Source of the DNA: a virus
DNA length: 64,000 nucleotides
Virus record (IMG/VR): IMGVR_UViG_3300020214_000005
Span: 1-64,000 of that record
Direction: 5' to 3' (one strand)
A model generated the notes under the pieces. The model ran no database searches, was not told the origin of the DNA, and saw only the letters and a program-made list of their open reading frames with translations. The position numbers and the translations under genes are program-made. Shown here piece by piece: positions 1 through 4,531 of the stretch. Position 1 is the stretch's first letter, and each line of letters opens with the position of its first letter.

Positions 1-335
1 CGCCCTGTCCTGCCCTGTCGCCCTGCCCTGCCCTGTCGCCTAGTGCCGTGCCGTGTCCTGCCGTGTCCTGCCCTGCCGTGTCCTGCCCTGCCGTGTCCTG
101 CCCTGCCGTGTCCTGCCCTGCCGTGTCCTGCCCTGCCGTGCCGTGTCGCCTAGTGCCGTGTCGCCTAGTGCCGTGTCGCCCTGCCCTGCCCTGCCCTACC
201 CTGTCGCCCTGCCCTACCCTGTCGCCCTGCCCTGCCCTGCCCTGCCCTGCCCTGTCGCCTAGTGCCGTGCCGTGTCCTGCCGTGTCCTGCCCTGCCGTGT
301 CCTGCCCTGCCGTGCCGTGTCGCCCTGCCCTGCGT
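1..335. repeat. Pentamer microsatellite (GCCCT/GCCGT/GTCCT), almost no A on + strand; runs off window start
   Basis: Directly visible tandem pentamers. Confidence 0.9.
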
Positions 336-381
336 CGTCTGGCGAACACTTGTTCGCCCTCGTTCGGTGCGTCATTTTTGA

Positions 382-415
382 TACTTGACTTGTCTCATAA
401 ATGTCGCTAGTGTGT
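382..415 (+). promoter_or_regulatory. Sigma-A-type promoter, probably leaderless transcript
   Basis: TTGACT(385-390)-17 bp-TAGTGT(408-413); ATG at 421 is 7 nt downstream. Confidence 0.7.
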
Positions 416-420
416 GGTTT

Positions 421-663
421 ATGGAAGTAACCCTACTGACCGAGACACTCAACTTGCGTGAGACGCTTCGCCTCGCTCGCCTTGCCGAGCGTCTGCCCGT
501 TTCCCGTTTCCGTTTCGGTTCGCCGTGCCGTTTCGTTCGTGTCATTGACCTAACCGTTCATCTTGTAATGCCAGAGATGTTTGAGCGTGTCGGTGCGTTG
601 CGTGTCGCTCGCTACTTGCGTAGCACCTCGCCACGATGGGGTCGTTCGTGGCGCAAGTGGTGA
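421..663 (+). CDS. Small hypothetical protein, paralog of 38198-38425
   Basis: 80 aa; shares LPVSRxRFGSPCRFVRVxDLxVHxVxPE and YLRSTSPRWGRxWRxW with the 38198 ORF. Confidence 0.8.
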   Translation: MEVTLLTETLNLRETLRLARLAERLPVSRFRFGSPCRFVRVIDLTVHLVMPEMFERVGALRVARYLRSTSPRWGRSWRKW

Positions 664-3600
664 GCGTTGCGCTCGCCGTTGCGTTGCGCTCGCCGTTGCG
701 CTCGCCGTTGCGCTCGCCGTTGCGTTCGCCGTTGCGTTGCCGTTGCGTTCGCCGTTGCCGTTGCGTCGTCGTGCGTGGTGCGCTCGTCGTAGCGTCGTCG
801 TGCGTGGTGCGCTCGTCGTAGCGTCGTCGTGCGTGGTGCGCTCGTCGTAGCGTTGCGCTCGTCGTAGCGTCGCCGTGCGTGGTGCGCTCGCCGTTGCCGT
901 TGCCGTTGCGTTGCCGTGCGTGGTGCGCTCGTCGTAGCGTTGCGCTCGTCGTAGCGTCGTCGTGCGTGGTGCGCTCGTCGTAGCGTCGTCGTGCGTAGTG
1001 CGCTCGCCGTTGCCGTTGCCGTTGCGTTGCCGTGCGTGGTGCGCTCGCCGTAGCGTATCGCTCGCCGTTGCGTTGCGCTCGTCGTAGCGTCGCCGTGCGT
1101 CGTCGTGCCGTGTCGCCCGTCGTGCGTCGTCGTCGTGCTTCGTCGTCGTGCTTCGTCGTGCGTCGTGGTCGTGCGTCGTGGTCGTGCTTCGTCGTGCTTC
1201 GTGCTTCGTCGTCGTGCTTCGTCGTCGTGCTTCGTCGTGCTTCGTCGTCGTGCTTCGTCGTGCTTCGTCGTCGTGCTTCGTGCTTCGTCGTGCTTCGCCG
1301 TGCTTCGCCGTGCTTCGTCGTCGTGCTTCGTGCTTCGTCGTGCTTCGTCGTGCTTCGCCGTGCGTCGTCGTGCGCCGTGCGTCGTCGTGCGCCCTGCGTC
1401 GTTGTGCTTCGCCGTGCGTCGTCGTCGTGCTTCGTGCGTCGTGCTTCGTGCTTCGTGCGTCGCCGTGCGTCGTGGTCGTGCTTCGTCGTCGTGCGTCGTC
1501 GTTGTGCTTCGCCGTGCGTCGTGCTTCGCCGTGCGTCGTGCGCCCGTCGTGCGTGGTGCGTTCGTCGTCGTGGTGCGCCCGTCGTCGTGGCGTGTCGCCC
1601 GTCGTGCGTGGTGCGCCCGTCGTCGTGGTCGTGCGTCGTGGCGTGTCGCCCGTCGTGCCGTGCGTGAGGCGTGAGGCGCACGGGTGGCACGGGGTCGCCC
1701 GTGTGCGTCGTGCGTATCGCTCGCCGTGCCGTGTCGCCCGTCGTGCGTCGTGCGCCGTGCGCCCTGCGTCGTCGTGCGCCGTGCGTCGGCGTGTGTCGCC
1801 GTGCGTCGGCGTGTGTCGCCGTGCGTCGGCGTGTGTCGCCGTGCGTCGGCGTGTGTCGCCGTGCGCCTGCGCCTGCGCCTGCGTGTGTGCGCTCGCCGTG
1901 CGTGTCGCCTTGCGCTTCGCCGTGCGTGTCGCCCTGCCCTGCGCTTCGCCGTGCCGTGCGTGTCGGTTCGCCCGTTGGTAGGTGCGCTCGCCGTGCGCCG
2001 TGCGTCGTGCGTCGCCGTGCGTCGCCGTGTCGGTTCGCTCGCCGTGCCGTGCGTGAGGCGTGAGCCTCACGGGTGGCACGGGGTCGCCGTGTGCGTAGGC
2101 GTGTGCGCTCGCCCGTCGTGTCGGTGCGCCCGTCGTCGCCCGTCGTCGTTCGTCGTCGCCCGTCGTCGTTCGTCGTCGCCCGTCGTCGCCCGTCGTCGTT
2201 CGTCGTCGCCCGTCGTCGCCCGTCGTCGCCCGTCGTCGCCCGTTGCTCGCCGTGCGTTCGTCGCCCGTCGTCGGCGTGTCGCCCGTCGTGCGCCGTGCCG
2301 TGCGTGTGCGCCCGTCGCCCGTCGTGCGCCGTGCCGTGCGTGTGCGCCCGTCGTGCGCCCGTCGCCCGTCGTCGTGGTCGTGCGTCGTCGTGCGTATGCG
2401 CCCGTCGTGCGCTCGTCGCCCGTCGCCCGTCGTGCGCCCGTCGCCCGTCGTGCGCCCGTCGCCCGTCGTCGTGGTCGTGCGTCGTCGTGGTGCGCTCGTC
2501 GTGCCGTGCGTGAGGCGTGAGCCTCACGGGTGGCACGGGGTCGCCGTGTGCGTAGGCGTGTGCGCTCGCCCGTCGTGTCGGTGCGCCGTGTCGTGCGTCG
2601 TGTCCGTTCGCTCGCCGTGCGTGTGTCCGTCGGTGCGTCGGTGGGTGCGCCGTGTGTGCGTCGGTTCGTTCGTGCCGTTCGTGCGTGTGCCGTGTGTCCG
2701 TCGCCGTGTGCGTCGCCGTGTCGGTGCGTGTGCGCCGTGCGTCGCCGTGTCGGTGCGCTCGCTCTCCCTGCGTGTGCGCCTGCCTGCGTCGCCGTGCCGT
2801 GCGTCGCCCTGCCGTGTCGTGCGTGTGCGCCCGTCGCCCGTCGTGCGCCCGTCGCCCGTCGCCCGTCGTGCGCCGTGCCGTGCCGTGCGTCATTGGTCGC
2901 CCGTCGTGCGTCGCCGTCTGCCGTCGTGCGCCAACTCTCGTAGCCCTGCGAACCTCACGGGCAACACGGGTGCGCCCGTCGTGTCCCCGTCGTGCCGTGT
3001 CCCCGTCGTGCCGTGTCCCCGTCGTGCCGTGTCGTGCGTCGTGCCGTGTCGTGCGTCGTGCCGTGCCGTGCGTCGTGCCGTGTCGTGCGTCGTGCGCTTG
3101 CGTGAGCGTGTGCGCTCGTCGGTGCGCCGTCGCTCGCCGTGTCGGTGCGTGTCGTATCGCTATGCGTCTGCGTGTGTCGCCGTGTGTCGCTCGCCGTGTG
3201 CGTAGGCGTGTCGGTGCGCCTGCCGTGCGTATGCGTGTCGCCGTGAGTGCGCTCGTCGTAGGCGTGTCGGTGTCGGTGCGTGTGCCGTTCGCCGTCGTGC
3301 GTGGTGCGCCGTCGTGCGTCGTGCCGTGCGTCGTGCGCTCGCCGTGCGCCGTCGTGCTTCGTGCTTCATAGTGCGCCCGTCGTGCCGTGCGCTCGTCGTG
3401 TGTCGTGCGTGAACCTCACGGGTGGCACGGGGTCGCCCGTCGTGCGTGTGCGTCGCCTGTCGTGCTTCGTTGCTCGCCGTGTCGGTGCGTGTCGTATCGC
3501 CGTGCGTCTGCGTGTGTCGTCGTGCGTCGCCGTGAGTGCGCTCGCCGTCGTGTCGCCACGCCCTGCGCTCGCCGTTCGTCGTGTCGCCGTTCGTCGGTTC

Positions 3601-4180
3601 GTCGCCGTTCGTGCCGTTCGTGTGCGCCACGCTACGCCGTTCGTGCGTGTGCCGTTCGTGCGTGTGCCGTGTGTCGGTTCGCCGTGTGCGTCTGTGCCGT
3701 GTGTGTCGCTCGTCGTGCGTCGTGCGTGAGCCTCACGGGTGGCACGAGGTCGCCGTGTGTCCGTCGTTGCGTCGGTGCGTCGTGCGTGTGTCCGTTCGCT
3801 CGCCGTGTCCGTTCGTTCGCCGTGTCGGTGCGCCGTCGTGTCGGTGCGTATCGTTCGCCTTGCGCTCGCCGTGTCGGTGCGCTCGCCGTGTCCCCTCGTG
3901 CGCCGTGCGTCGCCGTGCGTGTCGCCCTGCGTGGGTCGTGCGTCGCCACGCCCTGCGCTCGCCGTTCGTCGTGTCGCCGTTCGTCGGTGCGCCGTTCGTG
4001 TGCGTCGCCGTGTGCCGTGTCGCCGTGTGCCGTGTCGCCCTGTGCCGTGCCGTGCCTCTCGCCGTGTCGTGTCGTGCCAAAAGCGCACGGGTGGCACGGG
4101 GTCGCCGTGCCGAACCCGACACACGACAAAGCCTCGCCACTCTGCGCTCGGTGCGCTCGGTGGCGAGGCTCGCCGTGCCG
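664..4180. repeat. Low-complexity non-coding tract built from CGT/CGTG/CGCC units, A nearly absent on + strand
   Basis: Composition visible directly; ORFs across it are biased nonsense in all frames. Confidence 0.9.
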
Positions 4181-4531
4181 TGCTAGACGGTCATCAGGTG
4201 TCGCCCGTCAAGCTCCCAGACGCTCAGCCAAGTCGTCGCTATCAACTTGGCCTGCGCCTCGCTCTGACAAGGGATAGCGACTATGTGAGTGTCGCTACTG
4301 TCCCCCGTCGGGCTACTGATCCATACCTCAACGGTGTCGCCATTGGTGACTATCGCCCGAGGCGTTCCCTTCATCACGGTTGTCGGTCGGTTCGTGTTCA
4401 TTTCTCCACCCCCTTCTCCCTTCCCTTGTGGGGCTCTCCCCACGAACAACACCCTAGTGGCACTTGTGAGACAAGTCAAGTACCCAGACGACGGCTCGGA
4501 CAGGGGCACAAACGCCCACGGGTGGCACGGG
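1679..4531 (+). repeat. Dispersed direct repeat CACGGGTGGCACGGGGTCGCC, 8 copies or variants
   Basis: Copies at 1679, 2068, 2525, 2956 (variant), 3417, 3734, 4086, 4517; further variants at 5221 and 5926. Confidence 0.9.
4183..4401 (-). CDS. Hypothetical protein (72 aa, MNTNRPTT...)
   Basis: GGAG RBS, ATG at 4401, upstream promoter, normal composition. Confidence 0.7.
   Translation of the reverse strand: MNTNRPTTVMKGTPRAIVTNGDTVEVWISSPTGDSSDTHIVAIPCQSEAQAKLIATTWLSVWELDGRHLMTV

Follow-up and report, generated by a model that had tools for sequence, protein, structure and literature searches.

We analysed a 64-kb window (positions 1 to 64,000) of the IMG/VR virus record IMGVR_UViG_3300020214_000005, focusing on the repeat tract at its start, in which the + strand nearly lacks A, and on the small gene embedded in that tract. 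The window is the first part of a 97,935-bp contig of a freshwater tailed phage, classed as linear and estimated by CheckV to be ~65% complete; its capsid gene, of the HK97 type, lies at 58225-59559. The first part of the tract (1..340, + strand) consists of A-poor, C-rich 5/15-nt repeats and is cut by the contig start; its homolog in a relative, G001, is ~970 nt long and begins directly after a tRNA-Leu gene. A consensus-type promoter recognized by its sequence pattern (384..413, + strand; CTTGACT, 17 nt, TAGTGT) precedes the embedded gene (421..663, + strand), whose 80-aa product belongs to a conserved small-protein family with orthologs and a paralog. The second part (664..4075, + strand), defined with Tandem Repeats Finder (TRF) and word counts and called the core below, comprises 3.4 kb of heterogeneous tandem repeats with 1.8% A. 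The tract is closed by a hairpin with a 10-bp stem (4131..4169), read from the sequence and conserved in G001 and in a second relative, L141, which is probably the terminator of a - strand gene. A 72-aa gene with homologs in L141 (67%) and in a more distant relative, G005, lies on the - strand at 4183..4401, followed by divergent consensus promoters within 4445..4569 (4480 on the - strand and 4540 on the + strand, again sequence patterns) and by two small + strand genes of 119 and 80 aa (4609..5207) that lie in the partly purged fringe of the zone described here. Neither the 80-aa nor the 72-aa protein could be assigned a function with Pfam, PHROGs or the protein atlas, and the AlphaFold model of the 80-aa protein, poor and all helical (predicted local distance difference test score 66), was of no help. 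Rfam gave no match within 1-6000; its matches in the window were one tmRNA and two tRNAs.

The preliminary description of this DNA had reported a strand of almost only C, G and T with a different slippage unit in each segment, and both observations were borne out. The A content was 3% in 1-4182 and 1.8% in the core, where G+T made up 64% of the + strand, and TRF resolved units of 5, 7, 10, 12, 13, 15, 17, 29 nt and more, most of which are not divisible by 3. The 200-nt windows in 601-4000 held 0-10 A each, those in 1-400 held 4 and 12, and that of the embedded gene held 28; nowhere else in the contig did any base fall below 6%. The reported absence of CCGG, CGCG and GGCC before ~4.2 kb was also confirmed (0 each in 1-4200 vs 7-9 per kb elsewhere), as was the persistence of GCGC and a few CTAG (78 and 6 copies), the other 14 of the 16 four-base palindromes being missing from 1-4200. 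In the core, GCGC was the sole 4-bp palindrome. Against a second-order Markov model the core contained none of 82 expected CGCG, 44 CCGC, 15 GCTG, 10.5 GCGG, 8.8 CCGG and 8.4 GGCC, and 74 GCGC where 53 were expected, a deficit stronger than the one first suggested. Six-base palindromes were absent from the core (12-20 per kb elsewhere), and CCNGG, GCNGC and GGNCC were each absent from the tract, which held 275 CGNCG. The rest of the contig was mildly depleted in the same direction, with observed/expected ratios of 0.63-1.10 (ACGT 0.63, TCGA 0.70, CGCG 0.82, CCGG and GGCC 0.86, GCGC 0.97, GTAC 1.06). The earlier argument that a strand without A excludes palindromes containing A or T holds here, and the poverty in A accounts for their loss, but it does not account for the loss of the remaining words. 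Because CCGC and its complement GCGG were both lost from strongly strand-asymmetric sequence, the purge points to recognition of double-stranded DNA.

The embedded gene followed the same rules. No 4-bp palindrome other than GCGC occurred in it or in the copies of two other lineages, compared with 17 in its paralog at 38198-38425 (68% protein identity) and also 17 in the homolog of a 65%-GC phage that lacks the tract. The frequency of T at the third codon position was 0.30-0.33 in the embedded gene and 0.03-0.07 in the comparators, and the values for the gene and its paralog (0.30 vs 0.03) agree with the T-ending codons remarked on previously. Together, the loss of palindromes and the T-rich third positions indicate that the purge pressure acts on coding DNA too. 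The ortholog in G001 was 89% identical at the amino acid level, with mostly synonymous differences, and homologs of the gene were found in nine further loci. A tRNA-Leu(taa) gene (37975-38049) lies directly downstream of the paralog; a further tRNA-Leu adjoins the tract in G001.

Via a neighbouring gene we found two contigs from other samples, G001 and G002, which were 99.2% identical to each other and carried a 3.75-kb tract at the same place. In both the tract was internal to the contig and followed by at least 5 kb of ordinary genes, while its far side held tRNA-Leu, a Vsr endonuclease, a TauD-type dioxygenase and a class II ribonucleotide reductase; the site of the tract is that between Vsr/tRNA-Leu and a few small genes. 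A scan of metagenomes with a 21-nt motif recovered 20 contigs, 15 of which had an A-free or T-free tract; they fell into at least five lineages. Most metagenome contigs broke inside the tract, which explains the contig start of this phage. We considered, as the preliminary description had, an assembly or sequencing artefact at the contig end, to which a tract that starts with the first base of an incomplete contig, and the error-prone nature of low-complexity sequence, would lend themselves; since at least 14 contigs from other metagenome samples carry the tract, several of them internally and with conserved flanks, motifs and embedded gene, we give this explanation virtually no weight. Over ~20 kb of tract in seven sequence sets, which represent at least five lineages with differing repeat units, the counts seen and expected were 0/497 for CGCG, 1/243 for CCGC, 2/171 for GCGG, 0/115 for CCGG, 2/42 for GGCC and 387/343 for GCGC, and the same word rules were thus kept across lineages despite the turnover of repeat units. 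The fully syntenic relative L141 (57% GC) carried at the same site a 1.2-kb non-coding repeat tract with 8-17% A, in which ACGT (0 seen/24 expected), CGCG (0/19) and TCGA (2/17) were purged and GTAC (14/11) and CTAG were spared. From a tract that is purged yet contains A it follows that the loss of A is derived and that the purge is older.

The purge extended to more distant relatives. The capsid protein had 367 relatives in IMG/VR, with genomes reaching 150-170 kb, and distant relatives of 45-57% GC showed a sharply bounded zone of 2-17 kb with the same word purge and normal base composition. Most of these zones were protein-coding and had no repeats. The zone of L143 (7.5 kb) ends at a homolog of the small gene; that of G005 extends over 17 kb between sharp borders at 42.4 and 59.5 kb; that of G006, in its strict form, lies at 17.5-25 kb with a small-gene homolog at its edge; and that of G004 occupies ~127-136 kb, its edge at 136 kb being sharp. 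Among all 256 tetramers, the 12 with the strongest depletion in the G005 zone were ATAT, GATC, TATA, TTAA, ACGT, TCGA, CCGC, GGCC, AGCT, CGCG, GCGG and CCGG. Ten of the 12 are palindromes, and the other two are the CCGC/GCGG pair that is also missing from the tract of this phage. GCNGC was found twice in that zone where 36 were expected, GGNCC and CCNGG were also low, and six-base palindromes built on spared cores numbered 17 against ~74 expected. Six lineages purged ACGT, AGCT, TCGA, CGCG, GGCC, CCGG, GATC and TTAA, usually together with CCGC/GCGG, and every lineage spared GCGC, GTAC and CTAG; CATG was purged in G006 only and TGCA spared in G005 only. In addition, GATC was absent genome-wide from G005 (L254-L261) and L143 (0 seen vs 20-120 expected per segment), a loss separate from the zone-specific purge.

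The occurrence of the same purge in coding zones of normal composition supports selection against restriction-type targets, in line with the first proposal that the tract is selected to lack them. We therefore lean, at somewhat better than an even chance, towards the interpretation that the tract and its embedded gene form a zone kept free of the targets of sequence-specific nucleases, above all those of restriction-modification systems. With about the same modest confidence, the comparison of genomes suggests that the tract is one clade's three-letter form of a family-wide zone without restriction targets. Differences in host enzyme sets would produce the differences in words between lineages.

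The evolution of the tract was compared with that of its surroundings. The flanking genes of this phage and those of G001 share ~78% DNA identity, whereas the two tracts align only as low-complexity sequence. In genome pairs that are 98-99% identical, indels in the tract were unit-sized (56, 18, 15, 3 and 2 nt), and substitutions were ~7 times as frequent as in the flanks, all of them transitions and none creating A. The head-to-tail units resolved by TRF and the unit-sized indels between near-identical genomes are those of a variable-number tandem repeat. A protein-coding tract was rejected: units of 5, 7, 10, 13, 17 and 29 nt are not constrained to triplets, and relatives use other units. 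Without A on one strand there can be no stop codon on either strand, so that open frames across the tract are meaningless. Judged from its sequence and its variation, the tract is a non-coding, slippage-driven, rapidly turning-over repeat DNA at a conserved intergenic site. We found nothing in support of an origin by the adenine mutagenesis of a diversity-generating retroelement, and megablast with the tract and its flank as query gave no matches in deposited phage genomes.

Slippage indels, faster substitution, a G+T-rich + strand and T-rich silent sites in the embedded gene might also describe neutral junk, an expanding microsatellite under strand-specific deamination (A to G, C to T) with no selected property. 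Such a bias, however, predicts neither the contrast between 0 CGCG and 74 GCGC nor the joint loss of CCGC and GCGG, and C is not depleted. The same words were purged in coding zones of unskewed composition, and the A-free state outlasted a complete turnover of repeat units between lineages. We consider the neutral explanation very improbable.

A transcribed tract was weighed as well, in which the promoter at 384 would yield a 3.4-kb RNA free of A, or the - strand an RNA free of U, either of them acting as a decoy, a sponge or a nuclease- or toxin-resistant RNA. No terminator was found from the stop of the embedded gene (663) to the hairpin at 4131-4169, and the - strand RNA of 1100-1650 folded worse than 100 of 100 shuffled sequences (z = +4.3), both of which are compatible with such an RNA. 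Nevertheless, the first part of the tract lies upstream of the sole promoter, no conserved sequence or structure was present besides the DNA-type motif described below, and Rfam gave no match. A scan with DNA parameters revealed no consistent avoidance of structure and energies like those of the flanks, the joint purge of CCGC and GCGG is a double-strand signature, and the coding zones of relatives are purged too. This explanation is, in our judgement, quite improbable. Avoidance of single-strand hairpins was also rejected as the main cause: the - strand value for 1100-1650 is accompanied by z = -2 on the + strand, the DNA-parameter scan of both strands over 1-6600 gave mixed signs with energies matching the flanks, and the purge is word-specific.

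The second conserved feature of the tract is an array of CACGGG-N3-CACGGG sites. We found nine copies in 1679-5235, all on the + strand, and none with up to one mismatch in the rest of the 98 kb. Seven lie within the tract (starts at 1679, 2068, 2525, 2956, 3417, 3734 and 4086, 317-461 nt apart); the eighth (4517-4531, + strand) ends 9 nt before the -35 element of the + strand promoter, and the ninth (5221-5235, + strand) lies beyond the two small genes. The half-sites were constant, the 3-nt spacer varied and the strand was identical in all nine sequences examined, while the 9-nt distance to the -35 element was kept in all lineages. Approximately 25 of the 62 A's remaining in the core fall in these sites and their flanks. 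One asymmetric site in many copies and a single orientation, with a copy at a promoter, is the arrangement of an operator or stoperator array, and fixed half-sites, a variable spacer and a fixed distance to the -35 element are together the signature of a protein operator rather than of an RNA structure. The tract therefore probably doubles as a platform or a sink to which one DNA-binding protein binds, although a search among the neighbouring small proteins for the binding protein gave no family matches. A Chi-like role of the dimer was set aside on account of the fixed -35 distance of one copy and the variable spacer, and a scan of viral contigs with the 15-nt motif gave chance single matches only.

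These sites raise the alternative that the tract is an inert spacer, devoid of promoters, of start and stop codons and of further binding sites, that displays regularly spaced operators, with its palindrome-free grammar a by-product of excluding other proteins. The confinement of all nine sites to one strand of 1679-5235, the conservation of half-sites, strand and promoter copy under a varying spacer, the concentration of residual A's in and around the motifs, and the inability of a three-letter duplex to hold a TANNNT -10 element on either strand are all in keeping with it. Against it stand the coding zones of G005, L143, G004 and G006, which are purged of the same words in the absence of repeats, and the sparing of GCGC, GTAC and CTAG, which it leaves unexplained; the spacing of 317-461 nt is unlike that of iterons or centromere repeats, and the neighbouring proteins yielded no binding protein. 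As a complete account the inert spacer is distinctly unlikely, and we assign a similarly small probability to the particular roles that such an array might have, namely a regulator sink, a stoperator-like roadblock array, a partition site or an origin. An operator array is compatible with a zone kept free of nuclease targets and is probably part of the truth.

We examined whether the zone occupies the end of the genome, since the preliminary description had portrayed the tract as filler DNA in a restriction-proof leading end; freedom from restriction targets was supported by the analysis, and the leading end was not. First-entering or terminal leader DNA, of the type of the T5 first-step-transfer or T7 early region with the repeats as length filler, has precedents in T5 and Autographiviridae (10.1101/866236; PMC12455610). 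It would fit a purge limited to one zone of an otherwise mildly depleted genome. Over the 97.9-kb contig, CTTGACT-N17-TANNNT had three matches, all within 384-4569, so that all three consensus host-type promoters of the contig lie in the zone; the promoter at 384-413 is 84% identical over 38 nt to 4445-4482 on the - strand. The sequence pattern of these host-polymerase-type promoters, which occur with small genes, suggests immediate-early expression. The G005 zone also encodes DUF1281_C and DUF3846 proteins, families that we take to belong to plasmid establishment and leading regions. In that zone (L256 = G005 40001-60000; 4651-5448, 7804-8472 and 10915-11424) the two proteins occur with an AAA_5 ATPase that adjoins a 520-aa protein. 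A link of either family to plasmid leading regions was not found in PMC11541004.

The position of the zone weighs against leader DNA. The contigs G001, G002 and L141 bridge the tract, reaching at least 15 kb beyond it in one direction and at least 10 kb in the other, with ordinary genes on both sides, and our contig starts where the assembly broke within repeats, not at a mapped end. The contig of G006 (L271-L279; IMG/VR class linear) has a 2,826-nt terminal duplication (1-2826 and 166502-169327, one mismatch), which may be a true direct terminal repeat of the phage family. The 17 kb beside this 2.8-kb duplication have normal site counts, and the zone begins at 17.5 kb, 17.5-32 kb from the nearest end. 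By comparison, a putative 101-nt direct terminal repeat of G005 looks like an assembly overlap and is uninformative on the ends. No terminase match was found on the contig of our phage, so that its packaging start could not be placed. On balance, we judge it unlikely that the zone is leader DNA.

Returning to a zone kept free of nuclease targets, the three-letter form could work as follows. Removing A from one strand would leave a duplex without any palindrome containing A or T. Type I bipartite sites require a methylatable A on each strand and would become impossible, as would head-to-head (inverted) pairs of Type III sites. The remaining targets made of G and C only (CGCG, CCGG, GGCC, CCGC/GCGG, GCNGC, GGNCC and CCNGG) would have been removed singly, with GCGC spared. 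Slippage would then make new units from material already free of sites, and selection would discard units that gain an A or a target, while the seven operator-like sites within the tract would probably offer a platform or sink for the binding of one protein.

Several observations weigh against this interpretation. The rest of the genome retains thousands of the same sites (observed/expected 0.63-1.10); since a cut anywhere should be fatal, a purge of one zone needs a special reason. Uniform selection on every site fails as an explanation because silent sites elsewhere keep their targets, and the zone must accordingly be special. The zone occupies mid-contig positions in relatives, and 17.5-32 kb separate it from a possible true end in G006. 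ATAT and TATA were purged in several relatives, and we know of no enzyme with either as a 4-bp target; the two words may matter only within 6-bp sites whose cores they form. GCGC is commonly targeted by enzymes and yet spared, for which the sole lead is the M.HhaI-like core of a C5 cytosine methyltransferase. The phage itself is known from metagenomes alone.

The C5 cytosine methyltransferase (53698-55077) has a catalytic core closest to M.HhaI, and this enzyme might account for the sparing of GCGC. Its target specificity could not be derived from homology, as the match to M.HhaI covers the catalytic core only. The match begins at HhaI residue 68; the N-terminal motif seems absent, or the start was miscalled. 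In G001 (L137) the TauD-type dioxygenase (12569-13381) and the Vsr mismatch endonuclease (14229-14645) lie just left of the tract, and a Vsr in that position hints at heavy 5-methylcytosine in the phage lineage.

Besides the methyltransferase, the contig encodes a primase-helicase, a DUF932 protein, a ParB-like protein and an SNF2 helicase. The tmRNA (51441-51823; Rfam 103 bits) has the tag peptide ANKQFALAA, and a tRNA-Arg(cct) gene lies at 48751-48825. By the capsid gene are giant open reading frames of 4,972, 1,869 and 2,845 aa on the - strand. The first (window 59894-64000, on to contig 74812) ends with NUDIX and zeta-toxin domains, whereas the other two (contig 76240-81849 and 87862-96399) had no Pfam match. 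A stretch of ~13 kb (17500-30900) has few long open reading frames and a purine-rich + strand (GC skew ~+0.2; A 20% vs T 14%); its palindrome counts were normal, and the constraint on the tract is not common to it.

As a broader and still rather unlikely proposition, a family of 150-170 kb freshwater phages would keep a sharply bounded mid-genome zone of 4-17 kb totally free of a defined set of short nuclease targets, and one clade would have converted part of that zone into three-letter 'stealth' DNA. Should the zone be truly internal, it would mark DNA that alone, or before the rest, meets nucleases by an undescribed route. One possibility is stepwise entry or uncoating of a novel kind; another is that phage-made nucleases degrade host DNA and that the immediate-early zone must lack their targets, an idea that has been proposed for T5 A1 but, to our knowledge, never shown. 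The reason for a mid-genome purge could reveal a new strategy of entry or host takeover. Avoidance of restriction sites usually shows up as a weak statistical trend; in these phages it is all-or-none, sharply bounded and readable by eye. The zone is conserved across phages of 45-65% GC by two routes, the editing of silent sites in genes and three-letter repeat DNA, and in the latter the dropping of one base from one strand would remove most classes of restriction targets at once. This three-letter implementation of restriction avoidance appears to be undescribed, and full-text searching for literature on adenine-free phage DNA gave nothing relevant. A word-free zone could serve as a computable marker that locates, in the genome of an uncultured phage, the part that has to survive without protection, with the lists of spared and purged words as a readout of the enzymes that these phages meet or make.

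We compared the zone with known systems. The stoperators of mycobacteriophage L5 and its like are scattered through the intergenic gaps of the whole genome. The CACGGG sites resemble them in being many copies of an asymmetric site that share an orientation and include one copy at a promoter, but differ in that the nine copies are clustered within 3.6 kb, with seven lying in non-coding repeats, and that no repressor was found for them. For T7, Meisel and colleagues are said to have found in 1992 that all EcoP15I sites point one way, a strategy against a Type III enzyme in which strand asymmetry likewise precludes inverted site pairs; that strategy concerns one type of site in T7, whereas here a whole base has been removed from one strand. 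DUF1281_C and DUF3846 of the G005 zone and the DUF932 and ParB-like proteins near the tract are, we presume, common on conjugative plasmids and similar mobile elements. With the leading regions of conjugative plasmids (PMC11541004; PMC13478746) the zone shares the idea that first-exposed DNA adapts to the defences of the recipient. Those leading regions have no clear depletion of 4-bp palindromes and a weak, inconsistent one of 6-bp palindromes (PMC13478746); in contrast, the depletion in our zone is strong, and the genome is that of a tailed phage with an HK97-type capsid.

Closer parallels are found among phages. Restriction sites count mainly in phage DNA that is exposed early, and their position decides the outcome in T5 and Autographiviridae (PMC12455610; bioRxiv 10.1101/866236); avoidance of restriction sites in the early region of T7/T3 goes back to Sharp 1986 and Rusinov 2018, in the passages of PMC13478746 that cite them. 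The words missing from our zone were depleted both against the expectation from composition and against the rest of the genome, and, as in the T7/T3 early, T5 first-step-transfer and Autographiviridae leading regions, the depletion concerned one region rather than the whole genome. As in those regions, the zone holds host-type promoters and small genes without assigned function, and as in T5 there are large untranslated repeat regions, those of T5 lying beside its pre-early genes. The untranslated repeat region of T5, however, is conserved in sequence and rich in inverted repeats, palindromes and DnaA boxes (10.1101/866236), whereas our tract is hypervariable and, save for GCGC, free of palindromes. 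An injection-stop region of the T5 type was rejected for the tract, as the core has no 6-bp palindromes, GCGC is its sole 4-bp one and the sequence is not conserved between lineages. A terminal or first-entering position, which characterizes those phage regions, is in our judgement unlikely for our zone. The zone is set apart from them by its near-total purge, with 8-12 words removed over 4-17 kb, far beyond the usual depletion, and by the use, in one clade, of three-letter non-coding DNA.

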